Shown piece after piece: positions 44,734 to 64,000 of a stretch of 64,000 nucleotides of DNA. Location: the NCBI GenBank assembly GCA_964450915.1, contig CAYVFG010000002.1, forward strand, positions 5,379 through 69,378, given 5' to 3'. Made by a program: the position numbers and the translations under genes. Source of the DNA: an uncultured Candidatus Saccharibacteria bacterium (GTDB lineage: Bacteria > Patescibacteriota > Andersenbacteria > UBA10190). Under the pieces are notes generated by a model. It was not told the DNA's origin and ran no database searches. It was given only the letters and a program-made list of their open reading frames with translations. Position 1 is the first letter of the stretch. Each line of letters starts with the position of its first letter.

Positions 44734-44755
44734 CTGCGCCCCCGGAGGAACGCAG
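44721..44755 (-). terminator. Rho-independent terminator for the minus-strand operon: hairpin ctgcg...cgcag, then TTATTTATTTCT on the minus strand.
   Basis: Inverted repeat 44734-44738 / 44751-44755 with a GC-rich loop. The T-tract appears on the minus strand at 44721-44733, overlapping the stop of the plus-strand GT4. Confidence 0.4.
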
Positions 44756-44775
44756 AAGTTCAAAGCCCAATGCCA

Positions 44776-44895
44776 CTACTTGCCAGCCTGTTTTCTTTGC
44801 TTCATGCAAATAATGCACAGGCACACGAGAATCACGATCAGCGCCAACCAGTAACGTAGACTTGCAGTGCGGAAAGCATCGATCACGGTTTCCAT
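44776..44895 (-). CDS. Unannotated small single-TM protein of 39 aa (METVIDAFRTASLRYWLALIVILVCLCIICMKQRKQAGK).
   Basis: Translated by hand. AAAGGGG Shine-Dalgarno about 7 nt upstream of the ATG at 44895. It lies 39 nt downstream of the GT9 gene and is followed by the terminator above. Confidence 0.3.
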   Translation of the reverse strand: METVIDAFRTASLRYWLALIVILVCLCIICMKQRKQAGK

Positions 44896-44934
44896 GGCAG
44901 CCCCTTTGAGAAAAGACCAGAACACCCGGAACTA

Positions 44935-46005
44935 TTATAGGACGTATTGCGATGATTTGTCAAGCACTTGCTTTACTGAAATAGCTAGCATCGATGGGTG
45001 GGGAGTATTGCCAAAACTGGGCGCTGATTCAGTATTATATACTGGCACTGTTTCCGGAGCTCGCAGAACAACACTATGATGGCTTCTCGGGCCTGTCTGC
45101 CGTTCGTCTGTGGGGCCGAAGAGGCTAATTGTTGGGATATCCAGAGCTGACGCTATATGCATAAGTCCAGAGTCGTTTGAAATAAATAGTTTGCAATGCT
45201 TCATAATTCCAGCAGTTGTAAGGAGGGGGGCCGTGATATGAAATGCGATTGCCGGCGCCTGTTGGTTTATCATATCTGCAAGTTCTCTTTTTTGCTGCTC
45301 TTCATCGCTCCCTCCAAAAATGAGAAATACGCTATTTGGATTCCGTTCATATAAGGCACGCGCAACTTCTGCAAAGCGATCGATTGGCCAGCGTTTCCAG
45401 GCAAAACCTTGCGCCGATCCCGGATGAAACCCGATAAAAATAGGAGAGGGGCTGATATTGTAACCGAGTGACTTTAAAGCATGCTGCGCTTCTTGCATGT
45501 TGTTTTCTGGAATTTCAAAATCATACGTTTCAAACGTTATAGGTTGATGCAATATAGATCCTGCCAATTCGAGGTTTTGTTCAATATCATGCACGAGAGG
45601 TTTTTCAGTAATCGCTTGCGTAAGAAAATTTTTAGCATGCTGCCTGCCTCGAAGCGGGTATGCGTGGCCAATGCGAACTGGAATTCCTGATAAAAATAAG
45701 TACAACGCGCTTTTTAGCAATTGGCCTGGAGACAAAACAATGCCCATATCAAAATGATGCGCACGAAGCGTAAGGATATTCTTTATATGCTGCACAACAG
45801 TAGTCTTAATGGGCAATTCAATAACACAGTCAATATACGACTGCGCTTCCGCAATGCTCTTTGTACCTCGAGGAGCAACCCATACGGTAATATGCCAGGC
45901 AGGATGCGCATCTTTGACAGCTTTTATCGCGGGCAATTGCATGATCAAATTGCCGATTCCCGAAAGAGAAAGGTAGAGAACCGCTTTATGTTCTGAATTC
46001 TTCAT
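44935..46005 (-). CDS. GT9-family glycosyltransferase (ADP-heptose:LPS heptosyltransferase-like).
   Basis: LSGIGNLIM N-terminal motif and GSDEEQ...NDSGLMHIA C-terminal region, both typical of GT9. Confidence 0.8.
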   Translation of the reverse strand: MKNSEHKAVLYLSLSGIGNLIMQLPAIKAVKDAHPAWHITVWVAPRGTKSIAEAQSYIDCVIELPIKTTVVQHIKNILTLRAHHFDMGIVLSPGQLLKSALYLFLSGIPVRIGHAYPLRGRQHAKNFLTQAITEKPLVHDIEQNLELAGSILHQPITFETYDFEIPENNMQEAQHALKSLGYNISPSPIFIGFHPGSAQGFAWKRWPIDRFAEVARALYERNPNSVFLIFGGSDEEQQKRELADMINQQAPAIAFHITAPLLTTAGIMKHCKLFISNDSGLMHIASALDIPTISLFGPTDERQTGPRSHHSVVLRAPETVPVYNTESAPSFGNTPHPSMLAISVKQVLDKSSQYVL

Positions 46006-47131
46006 ACAGTGATTGCAGGGTTGCGATGGAATGATCCCATGAGTATGTAGTACGTACCAATTCCGCAGAAAAATCAGTAAGGTGCAAAGCTAGCTGCGGA
46101 ATTTTAATAATAGAAACAACGTTTTGCACAAGCTCTTTTTTATTGGAAAATAATAGCCCTGCCTTATTCTTAGGAACAACATACGGAATAGCCGTAGATT
46201 CTCGGGCTACAATCGGAAGGCCTGCAGCCATAGCTTCTGCGAGCACAATCCCGAATGCTTCGTAGTTTGATGCATGAATAAATACGTCCGCATGCTGAAG
46301 AGCTGCTATAACATCCTCGTCGGTGGCTTTTCCGAAATAGTGAACTGCGTCCGCTATCCCTAGCTTTTCAGCAATTATTTCCAATTCTTTTTTATACCCG
46401 AAATCTTCACCGATGATAACCAGGCAGGCGTTGGGAATTTGCTTTCGAATTTCGGGCAACGCCCTGACAGTATCTTGCAAGCCCTTAGATTTTGCTATGC
46501 GAGAAATTGAAAGAAGAATTGTTCCCGAGATATTTCGAGATAAAAACGGATTTTCTCGTTTTTCGGAAAATAATTTCATATCGACACCCGGCGGAATATG
46601 AACAAATCGTTTTACATTGTATCCGGCGCTTATAATCAGCTGTTTTTCATATTCAGATATAACAGCAACGGCATCTGCCTGTTCGAATGTTTTTCGACCG
46701 ATTAATGCATCATAAACTTTCCAGGCAGGTTTACGCCGAATGCTATTGGTGTAGTAAATGGGATGAAATATAAACGGTATTTTATGCTTATGCGCGTATC
46801 GAGCAGTTGCATCCGCTGGCTGATACCAGTATCCGTACGAATGCAAAATATCTGGCTTATGATGACCAATATAGTAATTCAAAGCTTGCAAACGAGGGTA
46901 TGAAACAAACGGGGTCTTAGAAACAAATAATCGCTGCACATACGCAGGGTCATCGAGCAATGCGTCGGGATTAAGATATGAAATAGGCCCATGTGTGCGC
47001 ATTGCGCTTGTAAGCACGCGAACATCCATATCCTTTTCAACATCCCGCGTTTTTTGCACGATGCTTTGAATATATTTTTCAGCGCCTCCCGATGCAGGGG
47101 GATACCGAAGTGCCGTGTGAAGAATTCTCAT
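45986..47131 (-). CDS. GT4-family glycosyltransferase.
   Basis: MRILHTALRYPPASGGAEK and EAFGIVLAEAMAAGLPIVA. Confidence 0.85.
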   Translation of the reverse strand: MRILHTALRYPPASGGAEKYIQSIVQKTRDVEKDMDVRVLTSAMRTHGPISYLNPDALLDDPAYVQRLFVSKTPFVSYPRLQALNYYIGHHKPDILHSYGYWYQPADATARYAHKHKIPFIFHPIYYTNSIRRKPAWKVYDALIGRKTFEQADAVAVISEYEKQLIISAGYNVKRFVHIPPGVDMKLFSEKRENPFLSRNISGTILLSISRIAKSKGLQDTVRALPEIRKQIPNACLVIIGEDFGYKKELEIIAEKLGIADAVHYFGKATDEDVIAALQHADVFIHASNYEAFGIVLAEAMAAGLPIVARESTAIPYVVPKNKAGLLFSNKKELVQNVVSIIKIPQLALHLTDFSAELVRTTYSWDHSIATLQSLYEEFRT

Positions 47132-47910
47132 AATGCGTTATATTTTTGCCCCATTTCAAACTCATAATATGCCGATAGAGCGCACCATACAATGCCTTGC
47201 CAGCCATCCAAGATACCCTTTCTATACAGAGACAATTTCATAAACTGCTTTAATGCGAGATAATAGGGGAGGATAAAACTTTTCGAGACAGCTTTACCAG
47301 AACGGTGAGTATTTGTTTTTTGCATTTCTTGCGCATCGAGCGTCGTATAGCGATGCATCTTATGTAAATATGCCCCTATGCTTGTATACGATTGGTGAAT
47401 AATAGGCGCTGATATTTCTCCAGATATTCCATCTTTATATTTCGCCTGAGAATTCGAACCGGAATACATCATCTTTTCATGAACATGAGCATCGTTCCAG
47501 TGCGCCAGTGTTTTCTGAATCAAGCGCGGATTATGCCCCACGAGATGCGTCATGCGTTTCCCGAGAAAAATATCTTGTATAGTGATCCAATATACGCTGC
47601 ATGTAGTCTCTAGAATATCGCCTAATACTTTTTGGAGTTCCGGCGACACCCGTTCGTCCGCATCAAGAAAGAGCACCCAGTTGCACGTAGTTTGCGCAGC
47701 CCCGAAGTTTTTCTGCGATCCGTATCCGTCCCAGTGCCGAGTGATTACATTTGCACCAAGCTTTTTTGCTATGCTTGTCGTTTCATCAGTACTATGCGCA
47801 TCAATAACGATAACTTCTTGTGCAAATTCCACAGACGCAATGCAGTCAGCAATGTTCTCTTGCTCATTTTTTGTAATAATCACAACGGAAATAGGAAGTT
47901 TATTTTGCAT
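47128..47910 (-). CDS. GT2-family glycosyltransferase (WaaE/KdtX-like core-type).
   Basis: ISVVIITKNEQENI, VIDAHSTDET and LFLDADE as DxD. Confidence 0.8.
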   Translation of the reverse strand: MQNKLPISVVIITKNEQENIADCIASVEFAQEVIVIDAHSTDETTSIAKKLGANVITRHWDGYGSQKNFGAAQTTCNWVLFLDADERVSPELQKVLGDILETTCSVYWITIQDIFLGKRMTHLVGHNPRLIQKTLAHWNDAHVHEKMMYSGSNSQAKYKDGISGEISAPIIHQSYTSIGAYLHKMHRYTTLDAQEMQKTNTHRSGKAVSKSFILPYYLALKQFMKLSLYRKGILDGWQGIVWCALSAYYEFEMGQKYNAL

Positions 47911-48562
47911 ATCGTTTCATAATATTTCTTATCGTATCAATTTCGATCGGAAGCGAAGTAATAAAATCCAAATGCGCTTCAAGATCGTCCAGGTATACGA
48001 AATGTTTCATATCGCTATGAGAGTTTCTAACCATATGGAATGTTTCTATGATCCATTTTCCGCGCAGATAGGCAAGAAGGGAGTATGCATTTGCCCGAGC
48101 AACGCTGAAATTGTTCTTTGTATAGTTTATCGTTTTTAATTCAAATGGTTTTTTAGGGGGGAGTGTTTCGAGTCCGAATTTTACTGTTCTGCCTGCAGTA
48201 AAATATGTTTGAGCCGCAGAAATTACGTCGTCGTTATATGCTCCGCCAGGATACACGATGCTGTTTGCACTAAGCGCTTCATGTGACATTTGCAATTCTT
48301 GCTGCATATCTTGAATAGGCATGGCTGCAAGATTGTTATGCGTAACGCCGTGTCCTGCAAGCTCGTGGCCGTATGCCTCTGCGCTTTTTTTCCAATCGGC
48401 AATGCTGGCTACCGGCTCATTGGCAATCGTTTTATGTTCCGGAGAGGTTGGCACGGCAAAGACTGCACGTACATTATATTGTTGCAACAATGGCAGCACT
48501 TGCTGGCGCACATCTTCGTACCCGTCATCAAAGACAAGCGTAATTGCTCCTCGATTCTTCAT
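47900..48562 (-). CDS. Polysaccharide deacetylase (CE4, NodB homology domain).
   Basis: ITLVFDDGY (TFDDG motif) and ELAGHGVTH. Confidence 0.8.
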   Translation of the reverse strand: MKNRGAITLVFDDGYEDVRQQVLPLLQQYNVRAVFAVPTSPEHKTIANEPVASIADWKKSAEAYGHELAGHGVTHNNLAAMPIQDMQQELQMSHEALSANSIVYPGGAYNDDVISAAQTYFTAGRTVKFGLETLPPKKPFELKTINYTKNNFSVARANAYSLLAYLRGKWIIETFHMVRNSHSDMKHFVYLDDLEAHLDFITSLPIEIDTIRNIMKRYAK

Positions 48563-49734
48563 ATTGCCATGATATATGCTAATACTTTTTCACTAGCCGT
48601 GCCGTCTGTTGTTGTAATCATTTTCTTGACTGTAATAGCGCGGTTAGACTGTTTCTCAGTTGGGTTTGTAAGCGACATTGCGATATCTTCTACTAGTTGC
48701 TTTGACGATGTTGCTATATGCGTTGCTCCGTCAGAAACTAGGTCGGCATAATGCTGTTGAAAATCTCGATAGACCATGCTTCTGTACCAGTTCCACCAGT
48801 CAAACTTTATTCCATATTTAGCGTTCACAATCGGAATGTCTGCAATCATAGATTCTAATGCAACAGTCGAAGAATGATTCACAAGCACGCCCGCGTGCAT
48901 GAACACGCCAATCAAAAAATAAATATCTTGTTCCGTAGGGGAGTATCGAAACGATTGCAGAGAAATACCTTCTTTTCTGCCCGGAGAAAATCTCACCGTA
49001 ACGCCATATTGATTGAAATTTTCATATTTTTCCAATACTCCTCCCGGATGCACCGATGCATACAAGTAGGGATTGTTCGGGATTTTTTTCTCATCGATGC
49101 CGTTTTTAATTTCTTTCACAATGTATTCCATCGGATATAGCTCCGTAGTTGCAATATGGATAAATGGTCTGAGTAAATCCGTAAAACCAAAAGCGCCGTA
49201 TACTGTTTCTTTGTTCGCAATCTTATCTGTATGTGCAAAGTAATCCATGCGCGGAGCGCCGATGATTGCAATGCGATCTTCCAAGACTTCTGGAAATACT
49301 CGCATTAAGTGTTCTTTCATCATGCTATTCCAGACAACGAATCGATCTGCGATCGCAACAGGGATATTATTTTTCAATAGTCGTTCTATCTTCCATACGT
49401 TGTCCCAACTTGCGATAAACGTTACTGTTGCAATATTCATTTTCTTTGCAATACGAAGAATGGGTTCGTCGAGAGCATCATGACCAACCGTATTAGTAAT
49501 CACCCGATCTGGCTGAATTGCGGAAAATAATTCTGTATGCTCAGCATCGTTTTTTGGATTTTCGTGAAAGATAAACTTCTGCCCAAATTCCGGAAATACT
49601 TGGTCAGATATGCTTGCAGCAGGGGTTATAATATGCACTTCTGCAATATCGTTTTGTGCCTCTAGGTGCCGTCGCAATGGTAATACAAGCTCTCGTATAT
49701 GATATCCGCTCGGTACGGAAAATAGCAGTTTCAT
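48559..49734 (-). CDS. Uncharacterised GT-B-fold-like enzyme. A TagF-like glycerophosphotransferase or capsule-type transferase is possible.
   Basis: Two-lobed alpha/beta pattern of about 390 aa with conserved His/Asp positions. No confident family assignment from sequence alone. Confidence 0.35.
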   Translation of the reverse strand: MKLLFSVPSGYHIRELVLPLRRHLEAQNDIAEVHIITPAASISDQVFPEFGQKFIFHENPKNDAEHTELFSAIQPDRVITNTVGHDALDEPILRIAKKMNIATVTFIASWDNVWKIERLLKNNIPVAIADRFVVWNSMMKEHLMRVFPEVLEDRIAIIGAPRMDYFAHTDKIANKETVYGAFGFTDLLRPFIHIATTELYPMEYIVKEIKNGIDEKKIPNNPYLYASVHPGGVLEKYENFNQYGVTVRFSPGRKEGISLQSFRYSPTEQDIYFLIGVFMHAGVLVNHSSTVALESMIADIPIVNAKYGIKFDWWNWYRSMVYRDFQQHYADLVSDGATHIATSSKQLVEDIAMSLTNPTEKQSNRAITVKKMITTTDGTASEKVLAYIMAI

Positions 49735-51878
49735 GGCTTTATAGTGGCACGTTTTGCCCTTTTTCGCAATAACGCAATTACGAGCGCGCCACAGGTGGCA
49801 AGCGATACAAATGCGCCAATTCTAATGGTTGTTTGCCTGTATTTCATCACAATGTCGTGACGACCTGCTGGCACTTGAATACTTCTAAAAAAGAGCGGCG
49901 ATTTTTGAATTAGCACTTCTTTACCATCAACATACGCGTGCCAATTTGGATAGTAGGCATCACGAACTATGAGCGTAGTATCCGAGATTGAATTTGTTTG
50001 TAATGCTAACTGCGATGGCCCTTCGGAAATAAGCTGCACCGCCCCAGAGGATAGTTCAAATCTCGGTTTTGGATGCAATGCTTGGATAGACACTTGGGTA
50101 CTAGGTTCTTGCGCAAGCACAGCGCCAATATTTAATTCGCGTGCCAATTCCATATTTTCTATTTCATTGGGATTATTCGGATGCAATTGCGACGTTGCAT
50201 TGGTTACCTCTTGCATATCAAGCGATGCCGGCCATTCGACGCCGTATATCCCAAACTGCGCGGACATCATGGGTAATAGCAAGTTTTTCTGTTGCTCGCG
50301 AATTGCAGTATTTGCACGAGACGATGGGTCTGTAAAATATGCTCCCGTATCCCCGCCATCCCGCAGAGCATACACGCGGGCTTGGTGCGCTATAACATTT
50401 TGAGGTAATTGCTGTATAGTTGCGGGTGACTGCAAAATAGATTGCCAGGGAAGAGTCGGGGTCGTCGTATATGCAATAATTACGAGATCTAGGGCAGATA
50501 GAATAAGAATGATTTTTCTGCCGCGCTTATGGCCGATGGCAAACGGCAATGCAATAAGGGAAATAATTGCAATTGACGTGTACGGCGAGGCGAGAGAAAC
50601 ACTCGAAACTTTTGCGCTTGCAAACATCGATTGCAATTTAGTCAAAGATGGCATTGGTGCGAAAAATAAAGCAATATTTGCAATGAATATTGCAGCAAGA
50701 ATAATTCCAGATGCGGCTGCAAAAAGCTTCTGCGCAGATTTACCATTTTTCCATACCGCATCAAATCCGAGTCCTGCGAATATGCTCAGCGAAAATGTTG
50801 TAAATAATAGCCAACGAGCAGGGGCGGAGAAAATCCACAACGACGGCTCTATCTGAAGCAGTCGAAACGGGGATAGTGAACCGAGAGCTAGGAGAAAAGA
50901 TATGCTACCAAGCCATGTGAAAAATGTATTTGTTGGACGCTTTATCGCTACATACCAAGTTGCCAACATTAACGGAATCACCCCGATATAAAATCCATAT
51001 TCGATTTCTAGTCGCTTTCCCCAATACGTATTATCGTTGCCATAAAATCGTGGAAATAAAAGGGTTGGTAGGTTATAGATTGGGTAGCTGAATTGATTCG
51101 CCGTTGTAACATTAAATGCGCCACCAGTACCCCTACTGGATAGTTTTGATAATTCATACGTTGGAAATAATTGGATAGCAGAAAACAAAAAAACGCCGAG
51201 GGCAATAATTATTATGGGCACTGCGGTGCGCAATAGAGCCCCTCCTCTTCCTTTTACTTGCAAATACGCCCCGTACGCCAATCCAACTGCCATCATGAGA
51301 AATGGAATTTGAATTTGGCCGATCAAGAATGGAATGGCGAATAAAAGAACTAGCACGGCAATATTTTTTGGAGATATTTTTTGCTTAGAGAATATAATAT
51401 GCACTGCAAGCATCTGCCACGGGAACCACGCAACTGCCAAGAAAATATTCAGGTGTGTTTCGTGCTGCCATACGAATTGCGATAACGAAAAAGAAAGCGC
51501 CGTCAGCGCGCTTGCTTCTTTGGACATGCCGAGTTTGCGCGCAAATAGAAACGTTCCGATTGCAAGCATCGCCACATGCAATACAAGCGCAAGCGGAAGC
51601 TCGAGCGACACAGGAAATAAGCGAAGCAAGAATAAAACAGGATAAAAAAATCCGATTTGGGCGGCTGCGATAACCGGGAATCCAAACGATACCGCAGGAT
51701 CCCAGGCAGGAATATGACCCTTGAGTTCTTCTGTATGGAAAAAAGATTCTAACGGGATAAACACGTCTCTCATATCGCCGATTGCAGGATACTGGTTAAA
51801 TAAAAACGGCAAAAAGGGGAGAAGTGCTACCAGAGGAACAACAATCAGCCATGTATTCGCTTTCATATACATGACCAT
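49731..51878 (-). CDS. YfhO-family-like large membrane protein (715 aa).
   Basis: LPFLPFLFNQYPAIGDMRDVFIPLESFFH...HIPAWDPAVSFGFPV is YfhO-like, with a long C-terminal periplasmic domain. Confidence 0.6.
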   Translation of the reverse strand: MVMYMKANTWLIVVPLVALLPFLPFLFNQYPAIGDMRDVFIPLESFFHTEELKGHIPAWDPAVSFGFPVIAAAQIGFFYPVLFLLRLFPVSLELPLALVLHVAMLAIGTFLFARKLGMSKEASALTALSFSLSQFVWQHETHLNIFLAVAWFPWQMLAVHIIFSKQKISPKNIAVLVLLFAIPFLIGQIQIPFLMMAVGLAYGAYLQVKGRGGALLRTAVPIIIIALGVFLFSAIQLFPTYELSKLSSRGTGGAFNVTTANQFSYPIYNLPTLLFPRFYGNDNTYWGKRLEIEYGFYIGVIPLMLATWYVAIKRPTNTFFTWLGSISFLLALGSLSPFRLLQIEPSLWIFSAPARWLLFTTFSLSIFAGLGFDAVWKNGKSAQKLFAAASGIILAAIFIANIALFFAPMPSLTKLQSMFASAKVSSVSLASPYTSIAIISLIALPFAIGHKRGRKIILILSALDLVIIAYTTTPTLPWQSILQSPATIQQLPQNVIAHQARVYALRDGGDTGAYFTDPSSRANTAIREQQKNLLLPMMSAQFGIYGVEWPASLDMQEVTNATSQLHPNNPNEIENMELARELNIGAVLAQEPSTQVSIQALHPKPRFELSSGAVQLISEGPSQLALQTNSISDTTLIVRDAYYPNWHAYVDGKEVLIQKSPLFFRSIQVPAGRHDIVMKYRQTTIRIGAFVSLATCGALVIALLRKRAKRATIKP

Positions 51879-51896
51879 AGTATCTCATTGGCGTGT

Positions 51897-51932
51897 AAAT
51901 AATAAAAGCGCAGATGCGTTAGTTCTGCGCTT
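51897..51932 (-). terminator. Perfect Rho-independent terminator on the minus strand: stem AAGCGCAGA / TCTGCGCTT, a 9-nt loop, then TTATTATTT.
   Basis: Inverted repeat 51906-51914 / 51924-51932. The A-run 51897-51905 on the plus strand is the T-tract on the minus strand. Confidence 0.5.
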
Positions 51933-51943
51933 GTGGTTATCGT

Positions 51944-52096
51944 TTACTCCTTGTGATTAAGCGGCCTCCTTGCTTCGTTCGTGTGGCTACACTGCACGCC
52001 ACTCGGGTCTCGCACGGTTTCGGTGCACTGGACTCGAATAAGCGTTAAGCCAATCTGCTCTTTTGCCTCCCAACGATCTCTTTGCTGCCTGCTCAT
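51944..52096 (-). other. GC-rich element containing a 50-codon ORF (MSRQQRDRWEAKEQIGLTLIRVQCTETVRDPSGVQCSHTNEARRPLNHKE) with an AAAGGG Shine-Dalgarno. It could instead be a structured sRNA.
   Basis: Translated by hand. It lies between the GT2 stop (52171) and the terminator, and its composition differs from the flanking genes. Confidence 0.2.
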
Positions 52097-52170
52097 ATCG
52101 GCCCTTTAAAGTACAAAAAACTCAAACTCCACCAGAGCAATATGATAAGCTAGAACTATCTAATTGTCAA

Positions 52171-52875
52171 TTACCCAAATAGCCGTAACTTCCAAACCAA
52201 CAAGAATGCTTCACGGATAATGGCCTTGCTCATCTTAGATTGGCCTTCTCTGCGTTCCGTAAAAATAATGGGCACTTCTTTTATTTTTTTCTTCATCTTC
52301 CATGTTCGATGATTCATTTCTACTTGAAAACCATATCCATCAGCGCGCACGGTTGAGAGGTTAAGTGCTCTGAGTGTTTCTGCGCGCCATGACTTGAATC
52401 CTCCCGTTACATCCTTATAGGGCATACCTGTAATAGCGCTTGCATATACATTGCCGAAGACGCTAATAAGCAATCTGGGTAATGGCCAGTTAATAACACT
52501 GATACCGTGCGAGTATCGGGAGCCGATTACTAAATCCGCCTCTTGTAATCCGTGCAATAAACGAGAAACGTCTTTCGGGTCATGGGAAAAATCAGCATCC
52601 ATTTGAACGATAGCGTCAGCCCCGTGTTCTAAGGCATACGTAAACGCATGCACATATGCTGCGCCTAGCCCTTGTTTTTTCTCTCGGACAATAAGATGCA
52701 ATAAGGGATATGTTTCTTGCAATGCTCGAACAATATTCTGTGTACCATCCGGAGAATTATCATCCACAATCAGCACGCTCAAATTTGGAATATTCTGAGC
52801 GAACAGATCATGAATCATCTGATCAATATTTCCTTTTTCGTTATATGTTGGAATGACGACCCACGGTGATTTCAT
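52171..52875 (-). CDS. GT2 polyprenol-phosphate sugar synthase, Dpm1/GtrB-like.
   Basis: VVIPTYNEKGNI, LIVDDNSPDGT, QMDADFSHDP and GSRYSHG. Paralog of 29779..30495. Confidence 0.85.
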   Translation of the reverse strand: MKSPWVVIPTYNEKGNIDQMIHDLFAQNIPNLSVLIVDDNSPDGTQNIVRALQETYPLLHLIVREKKQGLGAAYVHAFTYALEHGADAIVQMDADFSHDPKDVSRLLHGLQEADLVIGSRYSHGISVINWPLPRLLISVFGNVYASAITGMPYKDVTGGFKSWRAETLRALNLSTVRADGYGFQVEMNHRTWKMKKKIKEVPIIFTERREGQSKMSKAIIREAFLLVWKLRLFG

Positions 52876-53927
52876 ATAGCTGGATTATGCACCATATCGG
52901 TCAACACTGCCATAATTTCATCTACCGTAATGACGGATAGACAGCTTTTTGTAGCTTGCTTGCCTGGCATATTCCAGTCAATATAGCCCTGATTTTTCCA
53001 TTCTTGGGACGTGAGATTAATCTGCGTAGACCCTTCTTTTAAAAAGCCCATTTTATAACCCGTAGGCCCAAGCAATGTGCGATGTTTTTTTGCATCATCG
53101 GCAATATATTCATTCAAGAAATATGCCGGATCCGCTCGATGCAAAGGCTGGTCGCAAATAAGGGTAATCACTGGCAAACCCACTGCTGCCGCAAAGTGCA
53201 ACGGACCAGAAAGCACGCCGATAGCGGCATCGCAATAGGTAAGTGTTGCAATATTTTCACGCAACGTAAGCGGGCGGCCCTGATACTCATGGACATATTT
53301 GCCGCCAAACCAAATCGGTGGAGCGCCGTATGTTGAGGTAATTCGTTGCTCTAATGCAGAAATCCTGTCAGCATTCCAACCTCGAGTCGTTCTCCCTTCA
53401 AGTCCCTCAAGCAGCACTATTCTTGGGTGCGGATATTTACTCATTACTTCTCGAGCAACTGCGCGATCATCCTCAGATAGGTATAGCTTATAATTCGTAT
53501 TAGATTCTTCCGGCAATTCCACCACGTCATACATTTTTTTCATCGGATTTTCATCTTGCTCAATGCCTAAATCTAATTCATATACGCCGTCGTACTTATT
53601 CGACGACTTTTCTTGCTCATAATACTTCTTGCTCCACGTAGGAATACGGCGCCCCTCTTCTATGCATATCGACCCGGAAAGCGACATATGCTTTTCATCA
53701 AAATGCACCAGTGTATCGATATGGGGATTTTCCAGCATGAGAGCGATGCAAAAACCGCTTTGATTCCTCTTCCCATAGAGATTCTTCTTATTTTTAAATC
53801 CCCAAGCAGTAACAAATGTAATGTGGCAATCCGGATATTTCTTTTTTAACGTTTCAAGTATCGGGGGGACGAAGAAGACCATATCGCCCATGTTTCCTAC
53901 ATGTTTAATAAGAAATTTTTTACTCAT
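52872..53927 (-). CDS. GT9-family glycosyltransferase (heptosyltransferase-like).
   Basis: HVGNMGDMVFFVPP N-terminal motif and VLSGPLHFAAAVGLPVITL C-terminal region. Confidence 0.7.
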   Translation of the reverse strand: MSKKFLIKHVGNMGDMVFFVPPILETLKKKYPDCHITFVTAWGFKNKKNLYGKRNQSGFCIALMLENPHIDTLVHFDEKHMSLSGSICIEEGRRIPTWSKKYYEQEKSSNKYDGVYELDLGIEQDENPMKKMYDVVELPEESNTNYKLYLSEDDRAVAREVMSKYPHPRIVLLEGLEGRTTRGWNADRISALEQRITSTYGAPPIWFGGKYVHEYQGRPLTLRENIATLTYCDAAIGVLSGPLHFAAAVGLPVITLICDQPLHRADPAYFLNEYIADDAKKHRTLLGPTGYKMGFLKEGSTQINLTSQEWKNQGYIDWNMPGKQATKSCLSVITVDEIMAVLTDMVHNPAI

Positions 53928-55008
53928 GATGAATCGTTGAAGCTAATTCTTCTAACCGTTTTTTCGACTCCGCATAATTATACTTTTTCAGTCGCTCCTG
54001 AGCCGTCCGCACAACTTCGCTGTAATATGAATCATCTTGCAGCAACTGCGTGCCTTGCAATACAAGCTGTTCCAAAGCGGTTGTATCTGTTGCGGTTAAT
54101 TTAGGGAATAAATCGTCCTGTCCGTCGGAATTTGCTCCGATACTCGGGGTGCCTACTGCGGCGCAGTCAACTTGGACACGGCCGCGAGTGAACGTATAAT
54201 CCGTATTAATTACGAGCATCGCTTTCGAAAGCATTTCTAAATGTTCTTGCCAGGGGGTAAACGGAATGATGTCGTATTGCGCACCTTTGAGCTCAGATAC
54301 ATCAAGTTCCATATCTTCGACAGCAGACATTTGGATTCGGTATTGTGGGAATTTTCCTTGTAACTTTTTTGCCACGACCTCTCCTAGTATGATATTTTTC
54401 CTATCTGTTACGCCTGCAACATAAATAACATTTCTCTTGTTATTTCTGGTTTTAAACTTTTGTGATGCAAATTCAACAGGATATGGTTGAGGCAAATATT
54501 CAACACGCACAGCGCCCGCAACTTCCTGCCAGGCATCCTTCGTACTCTCAACAATAGTTAAAAATATATCGCACTGCTGTATAAAGTGTATTATTTCTTG
54601 CTTCTTTTCCGGCGCGCTCTCCCATACATCTTTGAGAATCCCATACGGCTGAGTCGGCACGCCTAAAATCGTAATATCTGGATACGTTACACGAAGTTTT
54701 TTTAGAAAATTCACCATCTCATGCCCATCGCTTAGCTGATAAACAACCAGCAGAGTATCGAATTTTTCAAAATAGCTCATATCATAAGACGAAGGCCATG
54801 AACCGGTGAGGCGTTTCATAATTTTCCTGTATATACCCGGCATGAAATAGGTGAGGGGGATATGCTCTCCTTTCAGAGCTGACACGTAGCATCCAAAACT
54901 CGTCGGATCGATTTCTTTTATCGGATCGCATACGTAGTTTGGGCGAGCATCGCTATGGCGCCATATCTGCTTTGTTTTGCTTGAATATTCTACGACAGCG
55001 AAGTTCAT
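53920..55008 (-). CDS. GT-B-like glycosyltransferase. It is divergent and the family is uncertain.
   Basis: C-terminal VQVDCAAVGTPSIGANSDGQDDLFP resembles a nucleotide-sugar-binding region of GT-B enzymes. Confidence 0.4.
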   Translation of the reverse strand: MNFAVVEYSSKTKQIWRHSDARPNYVCDPIKEIDPTSFGCYVSALKGEHIPLTYFMPGIYRKIMKRLTGSWPSSYDMSYFEKFDTLLVVYQLSDGHEMVNFLKKLRVTYPDITILGVPTQPYGILKDVWESAPEKKQEIIHFIQQCDIFLTIVESTKDAWQEVAGAVRVEYLPQPYPVEFASQKFKTRNNKRNVIYVAGVTDRKNIILGEVVAKKLQGKFPQYRIQMSAVEDMELDVSELKGAQYDIIPFTPWQEHLEMLSKAMLVINTDYTFTRGRVQVDCAAVGTPSIGANSDGQDDLFPKLTATDTTALEQLVLQGTQLLQDDSYYSEVVRTAQERLKKYNYAESKKRLEELASTIHHE

Positions 55009-56555
55009 ACTGTTTTTTTCTTATATATTTTTGCCGTAATAATATCAATAACCTCATGCATCTCTTCCAATTTCCATGCATACGCACAAACACTGTATAT
55101 AACGATTCCTACGACAAGCGGAATGGCTATTTCGACAGCGCTATTAAATGCAACGAATGGTCGAATTGCCCAAACGGCTGCACATGCAACTGCCGTAATG
55201 ATAATTATTTTCACGTATGCGATGTGCTTAAAAATATAATGCAGTCCAGAAATAGACTTCGTAAGATACAGGTAGTAGAGAAAAGCTGACGATAGGGGAA
55301 CAAGAGATGACGCAAGCGCTAATCCTGCAACGCCCATATGGGGCACAAGCAACGCAAACAATGCCATTGCTACAACTTGCGATGCAATAGTAACAGCAAC
55401 GGCGGTGCGGGTTTGCTTAAGCGCTAAAATTGCGTGTCCGAGTACGGAGCTAATTCCTGTTGTAGTAAGACCGAGAACGAGATAGAGCAGTGCAAGGCTG
55501 GTAAGGTTCGCATCGGTATCGGTGAAAGATCCGTGATGATAAATAACGTCGACGATAGGGTGACGCAATAATGCTACCGTAATAATGAGCGGGAGCGTCG
55601 TAAATACTATCAACCTCATTGACCTGCCGATCGTTGTTCGCATGCCGGCAGTATCCAACGTGCTGGCCTTTTCGGAAAGCAGGGGATAAATAACGAGCGT
55701 TACCGAGTTGATAAATATAATAGTTATTAATTGAGTGATTTTTTCTGCAAACTTAAGCGCAGACAAACTTCCTTCTTCCAAACCAGAAACCAATACTCTG
55801 TATACAAGCCCTGCGCCCTGCGTCGCAATAACGGAGAATATAAACGGATACACAAGATGAAACAGCGAACGCAGCGCCGGATCTTTAAGCCGTACAAAAA
55901 ATCGATACCGCATGCCTTCTTTGAGCAATCCCCACACAAGAAGGCCGAGCTGGACGATTGAACCTACAACAACGCCTACGGCGAGAGCGTAGATGCCGAT
56001 ACTGTGAACAAATAGCATAATACATAGAATGGATATGCTTGGAGCAACGATTCGGAGCAATGCCGGCAATCCAAAATGTTTCAGCGATTGCAGCATCGAT
56101 GTGGCAAATTCGACCATGAATAAAAAGAAAAAAGACGGCAATAAAACTTGCAGTAGGTGAGACGTAAGCTGAGTAGTTGCAGAATCAAACCCAGGCGCTA
56201 TAAGACGCACAAATTGCGTGCTGAAGAAAAATACAATTGAAATTAAAATAATATATATAAGCCCTATCGTATTCGTAATATTGAGCGCTAAATCCCACGC
56301 GCCTTGTTTATTGTTCTTGGTTAATCGATCGATGAATAGCGGAATGAAAATTGCAGTGACGGATCCGCCCATGAGCATCTTTGAGAGCAAATCGGATGTT
56401 GATTGCGCCATAAAGAATGCATCCGTTTGATGACCTGCACCGTAGTAATACGCGACTATGAGCTGCAGTACGAATCCGAACAGCGCACCAAGAGATGCCG
56501 TTATTCCGATAATGCCTGCATTTTTTGCAGTGTGCTGGAATTCGCTTTTGCTCAT
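55005..56555 (-). CDS. murJ: MurJ/MviN-family flippase (MOP superfamily).
   Basis: N-terminal GAGHQTDAFFMAQSTSDLLSKML matches the MurJ G..TDAFF signature. About 14 TM helices across 516 aa. Confidence 0.65.
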   Translation of the reverse strand: MSKSEFQHTAKNAGIIGITASLGALFGFVLQLIVAYYYGAGHQTDAFFMAQSTSDLLSKMLMGGSVTAIFIPLFIDRLTKNNKQGAWDLALNITNTIGLIYIILISIVFFFSTQFVRLIAPGFDSATTQLTSHLLQVLLPSFFFLFMVEFATSMLQSLKHFGLPALLRIVAPSISILCIMLFVHSIGIYALAVGVVVGSIVQLGLLVWGLLKEGMRYRFFVRLKDPALRSLFHLVYPFIFSVIATQGAGLVYRVLVSGLEEGSLSALKFAEKITQLITIIFINSVTLVIYPLLSEKASTLDTAGMRTTIGRSMRLIVFTTLPLIITVALLRHPIVDVIYHHGSFTDTDANLTSLALLYLVLGLTTTGISSVLGHAILALKQTRTAVAVTIASQVVAMALFALLVPHMGVAGLALASSLVPLSSAFLYYLYLTKSISGLHYIFKHIAYVKIIIITAVACAAVWAIRPFVAFNSAVEIAIPLVVGIVIYSVCAYAWKLEEMHEVIDIITAKIYKKKTV

Positions 56556-57793
56556 AGCGGAGCTCCGTATGCAAGCGTTACAGAAGCTACATGCATAAAA
56601 TCAAGCAACGCAATAATTACCAGCAACGCAAGAAAAACTTGTACAAAACGATCGTTTTTACCAATAAATTGCTGCATCTTATGCAATCCAAGCGACGCAA
56701 ACCATGCAATGCACCATGCTACAGGAATCCATGCACCCAAAGATAACGTTATAAGCAATGCAACGCCCACGAACAGATCAATGACCACTCTATTGCGAGT
56801 AGTTCTAGTAAGGCAATAGAGCAATACGGCAATCCCAATACAAGCAAAAAATATGGCAAAGAATCCGACGTATGCGCCAGCGGCATGAGAAACCTTGATT
56901 TGATTCGGATCAATGAGAGCGTCCTTGAAAGATAACTTCGTAATTGCGGTATGTGTTGCAACCAGGGCTAACGGTAGCCACGTCGAACACGCGACAATGC
57001 ATGCTCCAAAGAGTGCGGACAAGCGCGATCTGCCAACAATGCGAAACACCCACCATGCTATCAGCAATACCCCGAATACGAGTAGGCCATATAGGGCCAT
57101 GCTTGTCGTACTCCCAATAGCAGACAGTCCCTGCAATCCGGCAATGGCAATAAGAAGAAGGTGATCGCGCAAGAGTGGGCGCCTTTGCAGGAATGGAAAT
57201 GCAATGAGGGCAAGCCCTGCTAGCACAACGATTCCGCCAACTTGCTTAATGAGCGCTGGATGCAATACTTCATCTGCCGTATATGCAAAGGGATACTGTT
57301 GCGGCGCCCCATCAATGAAAAAGTGAACCTCTTCTCCGGAAAAATCGTTATCGAATGTCCTATTTCTAAGCGCAATGTCCGTTGAAATAGAATCTGAAAC
57401 CGTTACATGAATGCGAAGAGTTTCATCCTGAGCGCTTGCAACAGGATGATCAAATATAAACTGGGTGGGAACAGTTTGATCGATATATAGCGAATTAACA
57501 GTTGCAGTCTCCAGCACAGTGTCGCCGCGCATCAGCTGAAGAGTAATAATTCCTGTGTGATGCAATAACGGATGCAGAGGCAGGAAATATATTCCTACTC
57601 GGGAAATAATTTTATTATGAATAACAGCATCTTGGTCATACGAAACACCTGCTTGCATCGGTACGAGATACTTCGACTCTTCAGTAGGAGTTAATTTTAT
57701 AAATTGCTCATCTGTTTTTATCGTGAAAAAAGAAGCCCCAAGCGCTATAAGAGCGATTCCGATTGCTAGCTTGATTATTCCCATCTTATTCAT
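56552..57793 (-). CDS. Membrane protein: signal anchor, a periplasmic beta-rich module of about 180 aa, then about 7 TM helices. The start is MNKMGIIKL at 57793; the track ORF starts at 57832.
   Basis: An ATGA overlap with the upstream small ORF supports the 57793 start. Module motif DEQFIKLTPTEESKYLVPMQAG...GIITLQLMRGD. Confidence 0.5.
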   Translation of the reverse strand: MNKMGIIKLAIGIALIALGASFFTIKTDEQFIKLTPTEESKYLVPMQAGVSYDQDAVIHNKIISRVGIYFLPLHPLLHHTGIITLQLMRGDTVLETATVNSLYIDQTVPTQFIFDHPVASAQDETLRIHVTVSDSISTDIALRNRTFDNDFSGEEVHFFIDGAPQQYPFAYTADEVLHPALIKQVGGIVVLAGLALIAFPFLQRRPLLRDHLLLIAIAGLQGLSAIGSTTSMALYGLLVFGVLLIAWWVFRIVGRSRLSALFGACIVACSTWLPLALVATHTAITKLSFKDALIDPNQIKVSHAAGAYVGFFAIFFACIGIAVLLYCLTRTTRNRVVIDLFVGVALLITLSLGAWIPVAWCIAWFASLGLHKMQQFIGKNDRFVQVFLALLVIIALLDFMHVASVTLAYGAPL

Positions 57794-57969
57794 ATGCGCG
57801 TTCTTATATAATACATCGTCACAAACATACAAGCAGCGGCTGCTAACGCAGGAAATACGAGCACTGAGAACGTAGCAGGGTGCAGGTAGCGGGCATACGC
57901 CACAATGCTGGCAGAAATGATGAATGCGATACCTAGCAGCAAATCTATATTTCTCTTTCGCGATTCCAT
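57790..57969 (-). CDS. Unannotated small 2-TM membrane protein of 59 aa (MESRKRNIDLLLGIAFIISASIVAYARYLHPATFSVLVFPALAAAACMFVTMYYIRTRI).
   Basis: Translated by hand. Its stop TGA overlaps the ATG of the downstream gene (ATGA). It is just below the track's 60-aa cut-off. Confidence 0.3.
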   Translation of the reverse strand: MESRKRNIDLLLGIAFIISASIVAYARYLHPATFSVLVFPALAAAACMFVTMYYIRTRI

Positions 57970-58505
57970 AGGCTTTTTATATAATCCTTTGTCTGAGACA
58001 TAGTAGGCATCACTGGATATACCCTAGCATGAATGTCGCTTACGCTCCATTGAACAGGTTCCCCGTCCGTAAACAGCATCATATCGATAGACTGGTTTGT
58101 ATCCTGAAACGATGCAGTAACTGGGAATAGCAATGTTTTCGTTTGCAATCCTGCCTTGTCTACATCTTTATTGTAGAGCTGTTCCTTATCATACCCAAGC
58201 CAAAATACGCCATTTCGGACGCCTAAGTCTATCGTATTTGCATGCTCGGGATTAAACGTGATAGTTATGGCAATCTCTTTTCCAAATACAGGAGAATTTA
58301 TAAATACATCTGCATGCGCTAAGGATTCTAAAATATGCGTAGTATTATCTTGAATAGGGTAGGGGATAGCATGTATGGTTTCCAATGGAGCAATGTTTAC
58401 CGGCCCCGAATACAAAATAGGGCGAATATATATAGCGCCCGTAATGATAAGCGCCAACAATATGCAGATGCTGCTATTTGCGAATAATCGATTTTGCATA
58501 CGCAA
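57945..58505 (-). CDS. Membrane-anchored hypothetical protein (186 aa) with an N-terminal TM helix and a beta-rich domain.
   Basis: N-terminal hydrophobic helix SSICILLALIITGAIYI. No recognised catalytic motif. Confidence 0.45.
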   Translation of the reverse strand: MRMQNRLFANSSICILLALIITGAIYIRPILYSGPVNIAPLETIHAIPYPIQDNTTHILESLAHADVFINSPVFGKEIAITITFNPEHANTIDLGVRNGVFWLGYDKEQLYNKDVDKAGLQTKTLLFPVTASFQDTNQSIDMMLFTDGEPVQWSVSDIHARVYPVMPTMSQTKDYIKSLWNREREI

Positions 58506-59904
58506 TATCTTTCTCAGTAATTTCTTGTATAAGCCAAAGAACTATAACGAAGAGTAATCCTAGGAGCACATATTGCCCGAGAAGCGCAATGCCTGACACT
58601 TTCCAAAAATATGTCGGCAATACAGCACATACGGTTGCGACGCAGACATTCACAGTGCTGCGCACAGGAAATGAGATCTTGAATACTTGAAAGGTATACA
58701 CTCCCAATGCAATAAGCCCAAGAGCCCCAGCAATGGTTGTTTGCCATGCCGCACCAATAAGGCCGTACATGGGAATCAGGAACATGCCCAACACGGCGCT
58801 TGTAACTATCATCGCACCTGTTATATACAATCCAACCTTTGCCTTGCCGGCACCGGCGACTATGTTCGCTAGGAGCAAATAGAACGACAAGCAGCCGAGC
58901 CCGAGCATTAATATCGTTAAAATAGGCGCTGCTTGGATATACTTGGTTGAGAAAAATAGTATCACAAGCCCCTTGCTTGTTGCGGACGCAAGAACGATGC
59001 TCGGAACGATGAGAATGATCAGGTATCTCAATGCATCTTTGATAAATTGGATAGCTTTATCGTGGTCTGCCCCGGGGCGAGTGAGCGCCGCCACACTCGG
59101 AAGCAACACGAACGATAATCCTTGTAGCAGCATGTATGAAATCCTTGAAAGCGTTACGGCAGCATTGTAGTATCCGGCAAGGACGTCATTTTTGAGCATC
59201 GCTTTCACCATGAATAAGTCTTGGCTCATCAAAATTTGCAAGCCAACCAAGATAATCGCATACGTGCCGGCAAACGAAAGAAACGATCGCACATGAATGG
59301 CATGCCCCTCGCTTTTTGGAATATTCCGTGTCCAATACCATCCAAGAATTGCAGCAATGATTCCGCCAATTGCGAATCCTGCCAGCGCGCCGTAGAGAGA
59401 AAAGAAATAGAGCAACGCCAGCGCGCCGCACAATTTTGCAATTGCATATATAGAGGTTAAAAATGCCTGCGCATTAAAACGATGCATGCCGCTCAAAAAT
59501 TGAACATAAATTGGATAGAACGCCTGGAAAAAGATAATGACCGAAACAAACAGGACATATAAACTCAAATGAGGATCGTGCAAGGCAAACGCAATAAGAG
59601 GTGAGGCAAGAGCTAGCAGCAACGACAGCCCGATACTGATTAAGAGCTGGAGCCGAAGCGCGTGCGACAGTATCGACTTCGCATGCTGCGGATCCTGGGC
59701 AACGAATTTTGAAACGGCGCTTGGCACTCCAAGAGTCAAAATCATTCCAAAAATTGTTTGAATAGAGAGCACCACACCGTATATTCCATACTCCGCCGGT
59801 CCGAGTAATCGCCCAATTAATACATGCGTTGCATAACCAAACAGCAGCACGATTGCCTGAGCTACCATTAACGCAATTGCTCCTGTTAATTTTGTCTGTT
59901 TCAT
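58474..59904 (-). CDS. Polysaccharide biosynthesis protein / Wzx-like flippase (MOP superfamily).
   Basis: About 14 TM helices with the Polysacc_synt-like layout. GAIALMVAQAIVLLFGYATHVLIGRLLGPAEYGIYG N-terminus. Confidence 0.7.
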   Translation of the reverse strand: MKQTKLTGAIALMVAQAIVLLFGYATHVLIGRLLGPAEYGIYGVVLSIQTIFGMILTLGVPSAVSKFVAQDPQHAKSILSHALRLQLLISIGLSLLLALASPLIAFALHDPHLSLYVLFVSVIIFFQAFYPIYVQFLSGMHRFNAQAFLTSIYAIAKLCGALALLYFFSLYGALAGFAIGGIIAAILGWYWTRNIPKSEGHAIHVRSFLSFAGTYAIILVGLQILMSQDLFMVKAMLKNDVLAGYYNAAVTLSRISYMLLQGLSFVLLPSVAALTRPGADHDKAIQFIKDALRYLIILIVPSIVLASATSKGLVILFFSTKYIQAAPILTILMLGLGCLSFYLLLANIVAGAGKAKVGLYITGAMIVTSAVLGMFLIPMYGLIGAAWQTTIAGALGLIALGVYTFQVFKISFPVRSTVNVCVATVCAVLPTYFWKVSGIALLGQYVLLGLLFVIVLWLIQEITEKDIAYAKSIIRK

Positions 59905-62180: not shown

Positions 62181-63319
62181 TTATAATATACCTTTGCAGT
62201 TTCTTGATACGAATACTCTTCACCTTTTTCATACAGCGCCCTTTTATCTTCTTCCGAAATAGGATGCTGCAACAGATCTATAATATGATGCGCATATTCT
62301 CGAGCATCTCCCGCAGAAGCGAAAAACTTGCTATGCAAACTTTCGGGAAGAATAATGGGGCGAATCCCTATATTGCTTGTAACAATAGGTATGCCAGAGA
62401 CGCATGCAAGCATTGCGCGATAGCTGCTTTTTGCACGATTTACGATACTGTCATCTATCGGATCAACGATAATAGTTGTTTTTGCAGTAATTTCTGAAAT
62501 ATCTGCATCAGAAAATCGACCAAACCATTCAACGTAGCGTTCTACATTCTTTTCAGAAAATATTTTTCGCAATTCCTGCTCATCGTCCCCGGATCCCGCA
62601 ATAAGCATTGTTGCATCGGGAATTTCTTTTCGTACTTGCTGCAATATTTCTGGCAACATAAAAACCAAGTGCCCAGATGATGCCGAAATGCTGCCGATAT
62701 AGGTGATGACGTTATTCGAGCGATCAAGACCAGCCTCCGCCTGCTGGGCTTCGGCGGTTAAACCGGTAGGGATTAATGTTATTGGCACATCTTTTTGCGC
62801 AATTGCACGCATATGGTCTACGAGAAACGGTGTTGCGGCAATAATGTTCTGCGCCATTACACTTGCTCTTCGTTCTGCCCAATGCAGTACCGCGCGCTCG
62901 GACAAGCTCGATACAACATTTGCAAATAATTCAAAATCATCTACATCTAAAACAACTTTAGTTTTGATAAATATTCGAGCAAGAGATACGGCAAATACAT
63001 TCTCCGGAAGCGGCTTTACGATTACTATAACGTCCGGACGAATACTCAGTAACGATTGCAAAGCACGAATGGCATTGCCAAGCATTAAGAATAACAATGC
63101 GGCTCCGCGTTTTCGCTTTTTTCCTTCAGCTGTTCGTGCAAACGGATTCTTGCCAACACTCACAACGCTCAACCCGTCGATTTGCGGCGTTTCGCCCTCA
63201 TCATGCACCAGCAGCGTCACATCGTTGCCCATTCGGGCAATTTCTTTTGCAACAGGGATAATTCGCCCGATAAGCGTGGACTGAACGATCGATTGCGTTG
63301 TAACAAAAGCGATCTTCAT
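62168..63319 (-). CDS. GT4-family glycosyltransferase.
   Basis: MKIAFVTTQS N-terminal domain and VSGIPIVTSNIG C-terminal region. Confidence 0.8.
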   Translation of the reverse strand: MKIAFVTTQSIVQSTLIGRIIPVAKEIARMGNDVTLLVHDEGETPQIDGLSVVSVGKNPFARTAEGKKRKRGAALLFLMLGNAIRALQSLLSIRPDVIVIVKPLPENVFAVSLARIFIKTKVVLDVDDFELFANVVSSLSERAVLHWAERRASVMAQNIIAATPFLVDHMRAIAQKDVPITLIPTGLTAEAQQAEAGLDRSNNVITYIGSISASSGHLVFMLPEILQQVRKEIPDATMLIAGSGDDEQELRKIFSEKNVERYVEWFGRFSDADISEITAKTTIIVDPIDDSIVNRAKSSYRAMLACVSGIPIVTSNIGIRPIILPESLHSKFFASAGDAREYAHHIIDLLQHPISEEDKRALYEKGEEYSYQETAKVYYNCLV

Positions 63320-64000
63320 GCGACTGCTGCAACACGATTCTTTTCCTGCTTGCTAATTCTCGTTATAAGGGGAAGTATTGCTAGCGCAGATTTTATTAGA
63401 GTTACGGTATCAAGCTTGCTCCCGTCTTTTGATTCCCATGCGATAGGGAAGTTGTGAGTGGTGTATCCTCTGCGGATAGATCGATATGCGATCTCCGTAT
63501 CGAATAGCCATCTGTTTTCTTCCAAATCTTTATACAAATCTTGCGCTACTTCTTTTTTATATCCCTTAAAACCGCACATCGTGTCAATATCTCCGAAGCC
63601 GAACAGCCTCATGTACGCGCGATTTAAATATCCGGAAAGAGATCGCAATGCGGAATGCCGCTCCATCACAGAGCCTGGGAGCCACCTGCTTCCGATAGCG
63701 ATATCGTATCCCTCCAATGCCGCTATCATTTTTGGCAATTCAGAAATATCAGTAGCACCGTCTGCGTCCATGAATACTATATGATCGCCAGTTGCAGCCA
63801 GTACGCCTGCTTTTACTGCGGCGCCTTTTCCCATATTCTGCGGTTGAGAAATGACGAAAAATCCGGGAATACCAGAACCTGCTTGCCGTGCTGTTTCTTG
63901 CGTGTTATCCGTACTCCCATCATCAACAATTAATACTTCAGAAATTTGCGTCGGGTGCGCAGAGCAGTAAGAAGCAATTGATACTAGAAACGGCTGGAGC
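63316..64000 (-). CDS. GT2 polyprenol-phosphate sugar synthase-like (GtrB/Dpm1-like), partial. The N-terminus lies beyond the window end; the track shows only the internal Met at 63834.
   Basis: I extended the reading frame upstream by hand. It reads ...VLIVDDGSTDNTQETARQAGSGIPGFFVISQPQNMGKGAAVKAG...FMDADGATD with no stop up to position 64000. Confidence 0.8.
   Translation of the reverse strand, partial: LQPFLVSIASYCSAHPTQISEVLIVDDGSTDNTQETARQAGSGIPGFFVISQPQNMGKGAAVKAGVLAATGDHIVFMDADGATDISELPKMIAALEGYDIAIGSRWLPGSVMERHSALRSLSGYLNRAYMRLFGFGDIDTMCGFKGYKKEVAQDLYKDLEENRWLFDTEIAYRSIRRGYTTHNFPIAWESKDGSKLDTVTLIKSALAILPLITRISKQEKNRVAAVA

Follow-up and report, generated by a model that had tools for sequence, protein, structure and literature searches.

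Bacterial short open reading frames (sORFs) of up to about 50 codons that are missed by annotation pipelines are a known class. Also well-described are transcription attenuators of the trpL or pyrL type, which operate through a leader peptide, and extended −10 (TGn) promoters that drive leaderless mRNAs, examples of which are found in the Actinobacteria, Deinococcus, and others. The CsbB/GtrB and YfhO/GtrC proteins belong to multi-component transmembrane glycosylation systems, according to the portions of three reports considered here (PMC5836110, PMC7389260, PMC8035078). The window analyzed in this work, by which we mean the whole stretch of 64,000 nucleotides of DNA, resembles such systems in that a Dpm1-like GT2 lies beside a YfhO-family GT-C, the likeness to what those portions describe being one of genomic context only (PMC5836110, PMC7389260, PMC8035078).

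The two genes are separated by 292 nt on the minus strand and form part of a tightly packed cluster of mostly overlapping minus-strand genes for envelope polymers, comprising MurJ, GT9-like, GT2, YfhO, TagF-like, and polysaccharide deacetylase proteins. The cluster spans 44935-63834 (minus strand), its TagF-like member carries a glycerophosphotransferase domain, and it looks like a teichoic-acid-like or similar envelope-polymer pathway of a CPR bacterium. A search with the YfhO-like protein against one genome per species returned matches only in Candidatus Andersenbacteria and other CPR (Patescibacteria-type) MAGs, the top match (78% identity) being on the contig here designated L001, and the window is accordingly assigned to Candidatus Andersenbacteria. 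The gap between the genes had been characterized in a preliminary description as distinctly GC-rich, which is true of a 150-nt core (54% GC, the 99th percentile of 150-nt windows) but not of the 292 nt as a whole, for which the GC content of 46.2% compares with a window mean of 44.2% and falls at the 72nd percentile.

We consider this 292-nt element most likely to be an unannotated 50-codon protein gene, restricted to one clade and furnished with a promoter and a terminator of its own. In combination with a compact promoter for the YfhO-like gene, such a self-contained small-protein gene would explain the gap, a reading to which we assign a probability of roughly 60%. The features on which it rests are as follows.

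52171-52875, minus strand: Dpm1-like GT2 gene (Pfam Glycos_transf_2), with stop codon TAA at 52171-52173
52165-52170, minus strand: −35 hexamer TTGACA of promoter P1, its first base directly after the GT2 stop, invariant in four variants
52142-52147, minus strand: −10 hexamer TATCAT of P1, which is TACGAT in relatives
52097-52135, minus strand: predicted 5' UTR of the small gene, ~39 nt, with SD-like AAAGGG at 52102-52107
51944-52096, minus strand: small protein gene of 50 codons plus TAA, MSRQQRDRWEAKEQIGLTLIRVQCTETVRDPSGVQCSHTNEARRPLNHKE, with AAAGGG 5 nt upstream of the ATG
51897-51932, minus strand: intrinsic terminator, a 9-bp stem (51924-51932 / 51906-51914) with a loop of 9 nt, then the U-tract TTTTATTATTT as far as 51897
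51879-51887, minus strand: candidate promoter P2 of the YfhO-like gene, an extended −10 element TGaGATACT ending 6 nt before the ATG at 51872
49731-51872, minus strand: YfhO-like GT-C gene (Pfam YfhO), start reassigned to the ATG at 51870-51872

The conservation of the element in related genomes, a point raised in the preliminary description, extends to four distinct variants and is confined to the window's own clade, the members of which share 89-96% mutual identity in a tree of two upstream proteins. Carriers are the window itself, to which four Logan contigs (L007-L010) are 100% identical, together with L001, L016/L023, and L022, where L023 equals L016 across the aligned element. A further contig, L019, ends 14 nt into the promoter.

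That promoter, P1, was absent from the preliminary description. It reads TTGACA-17-TATCAT (52170-52142) and scores 11/12 against the sigma-70 consensus. The spacing of its hexamers would place the start of transcription at ~52134-52136, and as a strong sigma-70 promoter abutting the GT2 stop, P1 would drive the synthesis of a ~240-nt RNA with a 39-nt leader. The presence of P1, an ORF, and a hairpin in succession thus argues for a self-contained unit of ~240 nt. Identity over promoter and UTR is 77% between the window and L001 and 95% between L001 and L016, whereas neighboring genes are 34-65% identical at synonymous sites. Such conservation outside the ORF exceeds the needs of a minimal promoter, SD, and terminator, which counts somewhat against the small-gene reading.

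The embedded 50-codon ORF and its AAAGGG Shine-Dalgarno motif, which had been reported previously, are present at 51944-52096, and the frame is intact in all four distinct variants with evidence of constraint at the level of codons. Start and stop positions are the same in each, the window being distinguished from the other three by an in-frame indel of 9 nt. Nei-Gojobori dN/dS values in the ORF frame were 0.23, 0.18, and 0.08 for three pairs of variants, as against 0.56-1.8 in the other two sense frames, and the third codon position accounted for 15/31, 17/33, 6/8, and 7/10 of the differences in pairwise comparisons. In a permutation analysis, the observed substitutions were re-placed at random sites of the same base, and outcomes with equally few amino acid changes and no stop codon were counted. 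The resulting p values were 0.013 (window versus L001), 0.012 (L001 versus L016), and 0.0017 (L001 versus L022), with a per-pair range of 0.0017-0.016, and these statistics rest on few substitutions because three of the four distinct variants are mutually close. Synonymous divergence of the ORF (pS 0.475) matches the neutral rate of the neighboring genes (0.48-0.66), from which it follows that the constraint acts on the protein and not on RNA pairing. The frame therefore has the characteristics of a genuine sORF in that it stays open across diverged orthologues and shows a frame-specific synonymous excess.

Comparison of the sense and antisense frames among the variants revealed no second frame that was both open and constrained. 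An antisense frame mirroring the wobble positions was discarded as a gene because it contains stops, as was the plus-strand 42-aa ORF listed at 51981-52109, which is interrupted by stops in relatives. Another antisense frame is open in both L001 and L016 but is interrupted by a stop in the window; its dN/dS is ~0.8-1.1.

In many respects, this gene is a typical sORF. It shares with known examples a short reading frame with its own promoter, RBS-like motif, and terminator; it has been overlooked by gene callers on most contigs; and it is conserved only in close relatives, where it is detected by codon-level conservation. Gene callers passed over it on window-type contigs, whereas in one ENA assembly a 47-aa gene (P0122) was called at the ORF. 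It differs from known examples in encoding a 50-aa protein without a homologue in described families and in belonging to an uncultivated CPR host.

An alternative view of the same unit, related to one of the options offered in the preliminary description, is that the ~240-nt transcript is a structured riboregulator, either a non-coding or a dual-function sRNA, with the ORF incidental or secondary. A strong promoter and terminator bracketing a GC-rich core would suit such an RNA, as would untranslated parts that are 77-95% identical, far above neutral expectation. Rfam, however, gave nothing in 51879-52170 even at E ≤ 10, and Rfam 15 yielded no match at the gathering threshold across the whole window; ARAGORN found no tRNA or tmRNA. 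Folding of the single sequence was little different from that of shuffled sequences (z = −1.1), and the consensus fold compared with column shuffles gave z = −1.4 with the terminator included and 0.0 without it. Six compensatory pairs were counted against 2.3 ± 1.2 in shuffles, a comparison made on the very four sequences that had supplied the structure. Covariation without the terminator reached p ~0.02-0.04, again with the fold taken from the same sequences, and was not significant for the ORF alone. By our own tally, L022-specific changes at paired positions keep the pair in 7/8 cases, L022 having been outside the derivation of the structure. The combination of neutral synonymous sites with constrained replacement sites is, in contrast, what a protein would be expected to show and a structured RNA would not. 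We therefore regard a riboregulator as quite unlikely and, given that the fold derives from the sequences on which it was assessed, retain a structured or dual-function mRNA as a minor possibility only.

Within the ORF, an imperfect 13-bp hairpin (52001-52039, minus strand) stays paired across the variants despite several wobble changes, one C-G pair that becomes U-A, and one A-U pair that passes through A-C to G-C, although two terminal or intermediate pairs break. The maintenance of pairing through the A-U to A-C to G-C series can be counted in favor of a functional RNA; alone, the hairpin is not significant.

Returning to the small-protein gene, its downstream boundary is clearly marked. 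The claim that a perfect 9-bp hairpin followed by a U-tract lies here was well-founded, and the structure is conserved in all variants. The inverted repeat, AAGCGCAGA / TCTGCGCTT, is perfect over 9 nt and is followed by TTATTATTT; the stem includes 5 G-C pairs, and the hairpin has an energy of −9.9 kcal/mol, or −13.3 kcal/mol with an A/U extension. It occurs once within the 64-kb window. All nine stem pairs are kept in every variant, with three of them varying on one side only. A terminator scan with a loop limit of 8 omitted this hairpin because its loop is 9 nt in length. With a stable GC-rich hairpin and a U-tract on the transcribed strand, the structure is that of an intrinsic terminator, and it supports the view that the element is a discrete unit with a genuine, conserved terminator at its end; from it we infer both the 3' end of the transcript and the efficiency of termination. 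The hairpin would end the small-gene transcript together with anything reading in from the MurJ...GT2 operon and would not function as an attenuator of YfhO. The gap of ~20 nt previously reported to separate the terminator from the YfhO-like start is also correct: the last base of the U-tract, 51897, precedes the listed ATG at 51878 by 18 nt and the conserved ATG at 51872 by 24 nt.

The arrangement nevertheless invites comparison with the trpL and pyrL attenuators, in which a structural gene is likewise closely preceded, on its own strand, by a short ORF and then an intrinsic terminator, and attenuation had indeed been suggested for this locus. Translation of the small ORF would then control termination at the hairpin ahead of the YfhO-like gene. 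The geometry is suggestive, with a terminator on the same strand as YfhO and 24 nt before its start, an ORF stop 11 nt before the stem such that a terminating ribosome could touch the 5' arm, and strong conservation of both the leader and the post-terminator region. The distance from stop to stem, however, is not constant, the window having 11 nt and the other variants 15 nt, and the consensus fold contains no conserved alternative pairing with either arm of the terminator. No antiterminator alternative, and hence no mutually exclusive pair of structures coupled to translation, was found. Unlike a leader peptide, the product is selected along its whole length, with a frame-specific dN/dS of 0.08-0.23, and contains no run of repeated regulatory codons. 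The element is, moreover, dispensable in relatives, in that other, more distant Andersenbacteria carry the gene pair without it, and the YfhO-like gene has a promoter-like element (P2) of its own. Attenuation thus appears rather unlikely.

The candidate promoter P2 bears directly on the statement that the short gap leaves no room for a conventional promoter. This overlooked TGaGATACT (51879-51887), which ends 6 nt before the ATG at 51872. The latter is the sole ATG common to all variants, the codon at 51878 being ATA in L001 and that at 51866 being ATA in L016, and the longest-ORF start at 51878 is therefore probably wrong. On the identical contigs, a gene caller had placed the start of the YfhO-like gene at 51866. 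The block CAATGAGATACTA is invariant in the four variants, although their neutral sites have diverged by ~50%, and is also retained in L013-15. The latter contigs have lost the hairpin's 5' arm and have an upstream neighbor in the opposite orientation, yet the P2 block is present. It cannot be part of a terminator there, and YfhO must have a promoter of its own. A related motif, TGcCATTAT, followed by 6 nt and then ATG, is found after the GT2 gene in L017.

Similar arrangements recur elsewhere in the window. A TGn-extended −10 followed by 6 nt and an ATG, without an SD, is also present at the genes starting at 4627(+), 22892(−), and 22977(+), whereas a TGn-extended motif at such spacing precedes 1.1% of all ATGs in the window. 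Allowing for spacings of 4-9 nt, a −10-like hexamer precedes the ATG of 8/13 operon-leading genes compared with 14.8% of all ATGs. The SD core was detected at 2/36 ordinary genes, as against 10.9% at random positions. Inspection of the operon-leading starts at 4627(+), 22892(−), 22977(+), 16535(+), 32535(+), 15460(−), and others showed no SD and, at 5-8 nt upstream of the ATG, a −10 hexamer with or without a TGn extension. The near-absence of SD motifs in the window fits the reported absence of the anti-SD motif from many Parcubacteria (PMC9297842). Together, these data suggest that leaderless mRNAs may be the norm in this Andersenbacteria genome.

In its TGn, its hexamer with A2 and T6, the 6 nt that separate it from the ATG, and its lack of an SD, P2 conforms to the extended −10 promoters of leaderless mRNAs described in other bacteria, and the recurrence of its layout at other operon-leading genes of the window adds to the resemblance. 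It departs from them in lying directly against the preceding U-tract and in being recognized here from sequence alone. The shared layout, the conservation, and the scarcity of SD motifs lead us to read TGaGATACT as a putative promoter that would give a leaderless YfhO mRNA. Transcription from P2, right after the U-tract, would start at or within 1-2 bases of the A of the ATG at 51872, and YfhO and the following genes would be transcribed from P2 with a contribution from any read-through, the latter not being required. The motif could instead be a translation signal. No −35 is recognizable for it, and its −10 hexamer agrees with the consensus at only 4/6 positions; a search for a −35/−10 promoter between the terminator and the ATG found none scoring at least 9/12, and candidates for a −35 upstream of TATTAT in the U-tract, judged by eye, match only 2-3 of 6 positions.

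These shortcomings lend some weight to the proposal, made in the preliminary description, that the YfhO-like gene is expressed by read-through. P2 would then not be a promoter at all, YfhO and the later genes would depend on a leaky terminator, and P1 would act as an internal booster. The genes 3' of the YfhO-like gene are intact and tightly packed, and the terminator may be imperfect, given its loop of 9 nt and the interruption of its U-tract (UUUUAUUAUUU). It is difficult to reconcile this proposal, however, with a P2 motif that is invariant across lineages showing ~50% neutral divergence, is spaced exactly as at other leaderless-type genes, and persists in L013-15 despite the loss of the hairpin's 5' arm and an upstream gene of opposite orientation. 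We consider dependence on read-through unlikely. The observations made in the preliminary description (the terminator, the ORF, and the gap of ~20 nt) have therefore largely stood, whereas their interpretation in terms of an absent promoter, a riboregulator, or attenuation mostly has not.

Outside the clade of the window, the junction between the GT2 and YfhO-like genes is highly variable. The element is absent from L002, L003, L005, L006, L012, and L017, which have the same flanking genes, and in L002, L003, L006, and L012 the GT2 and YfhO genes overlap or abut. Since distant relatives differ at this position, the element is a clade-specific occupant of a variable junction and not, as far as the compared sequences indicate, a general regulatory feature of GT2-YfhO pairs. 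The small-protein unit would have arisen in the ancestor of one small Andersenbacteria clade.

Other occupants were encountered among the relatives. L005 carries a different GC-rich palindromic insert at 5925-6010, L017 (3205-3240) and L018 have another gene at the junction, and L020 (904-1101) and L021 (779-969) have other genes just after the GT2 stop. An opposite-strand gene for a 77-aa coiled-coil-like protein is present in L013-15 (3205-3690 in L013). In L011, an unrelated 115-aa ORF occupies the region 3200-3690 together with a TTGACA-17-TACAGT promoter and a homologue of the window's terminator. None of the ORFs in these junction inserts has a credible Pfam or PHROGs match. On the L011 contig (logan SRR30809810_90732, 15.5 kb), the shared terminator closes the GT2 operon, and convergent genes come next; a YfhO-like protein of 75% identity, P0128, is encoded on a contig of equal length (15,527 nt), apparently this one, in which case the GT2-YfhO pair would be separated.

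The terminator that closes the unrelated L011 cassette is 87% identical to that of the window over 38 nt, and in a blastn comparison the L011 cassette shared no other homology with the window element. It is conceivable that the junction is a conserved “expression slot” that repeatedly captures or creates orphan genes beside the envelope-glycosylation enzymes, the 50-aa protein or its structured, conserved mRNA then perhaps directly modulating the YfhO-type glycosyltransferase. The basis for this idea is the presence in sister lineages of a TTGACA-type promoter and a homologous terminator around unrelated ORFs (50 aa here, 115 aa in L011), with the opposite-strand 77-aa gene of a third lineage (L013-15) in the same slot; we regard it as speculative and of low probability.

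Lineage restriction, the different inserts at the junction in related genomes, and a protein without homologues might equally be expected of a decaying remnant of an inserted gene or mobile element that has no present function. Decay is at odds with the purifying selection on the ORF and its flanking signals. Furthermore, there are no terminal inverted repeats or target duplications, the sole inverted repeat being the terminator, and no second copy in the window, so that neither the copy number nor any transposon hallmark points to a mobile element or MITE. Searches of viral and JGI metagenome collections with exact DNA patterns (the SD/start block and the post-terminator motif) returned 0 matches. 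A non-functional remnant is thus very improbable, and we return to the small-protein gene and its product.

No candidates emerged from a word-indexed protein search with the 50-aa ORF. A full HMMER scan of 1.84 billion representatives recovered only the 47-aa orthologue P0122 and two tandem-repeat artefacts, P0121 and P0123, which were rejected as homologues because their scores arose from 31 and 4 repeated weak matches, and comparison with Pfam, PHROGs, and PDB sequences at E ≤ 10 gave no credible match. Across the variants, 30/50 positions are invariant, including two cysteines, and there is no membrane segment. AlphaFold2, run on two sequences, predicts a helix at residues 3-29, with a pLDDT of ~85 over residues 1-20 and a disordered tail (<50). 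The RNA from P1 would therefore encode a soluble 50-aa protein with an N-terminal helix of ~27 residues, two conserved cysteines, and a disordered tail. Tryptic peptides of the protein include WEAKEQIGLTLIR and DPSGVQCSHTNEAR.

The predicted solubility sets this protein apart from the many characterized small proteins that are single-pass membrane proteins. Lacking a membrane segment, it is not a flippase of the GtrA/GtcA type, which distinguishes the locus from the CsbB/GtrB-YfhO/GtrC systems, and the portions of the three reports on those systems considered here describe no comparable small partner (PMC5836110, PMC7389260, PMC8035078). Our guess, from gene position only, is that this small protein assists or regulates the envelope-glycosylation module from the cytoplasm. 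Should it indeed act on a CsbB/YfhO-type module, that system would gain a new accessory.

For annotation, the analysis adds one clade-restricted small protein to the pool of unannotated sORFs and, for a YfhO-family gene of a CPR genome, corrects both the start codon and the model of transcription. The lesson in terms of method is that the absence of “room for a promoter” is an unsafe inference in this organism. Promoters of the −10 or extended −10 type that abut the start codon appear to serve its operon-leading genes, and SD motifs are nearly absent, so gaps of 20-30 nt can hold a complete promoter.

A second unit of this kind, located at 44734-44963 (minus strand) at the 3' end of the same cluster, has a perfect promoter, an AAAGGGG motif, a 39-aa ORF, and a terminator, arranged as follows.

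44963-44934, minus strand: promoter TTGACA-18-TATAAT, overlapping the end of the GT9-like gene
ATG at 44895, minus strand: 39-aa ORF, METVIDAFRTASLRYWLALIVILVCLCIICMKQRKQAGK, with one hydrophobic helix
44755-44734, minus strand: terminator

Among the window genes examined, only these two small-ORF units combine a −35/−10 promoter with a long leader and an SD-like motif, and the exclusiveness of that combination supports the reading of both as genuine leadered small genes.
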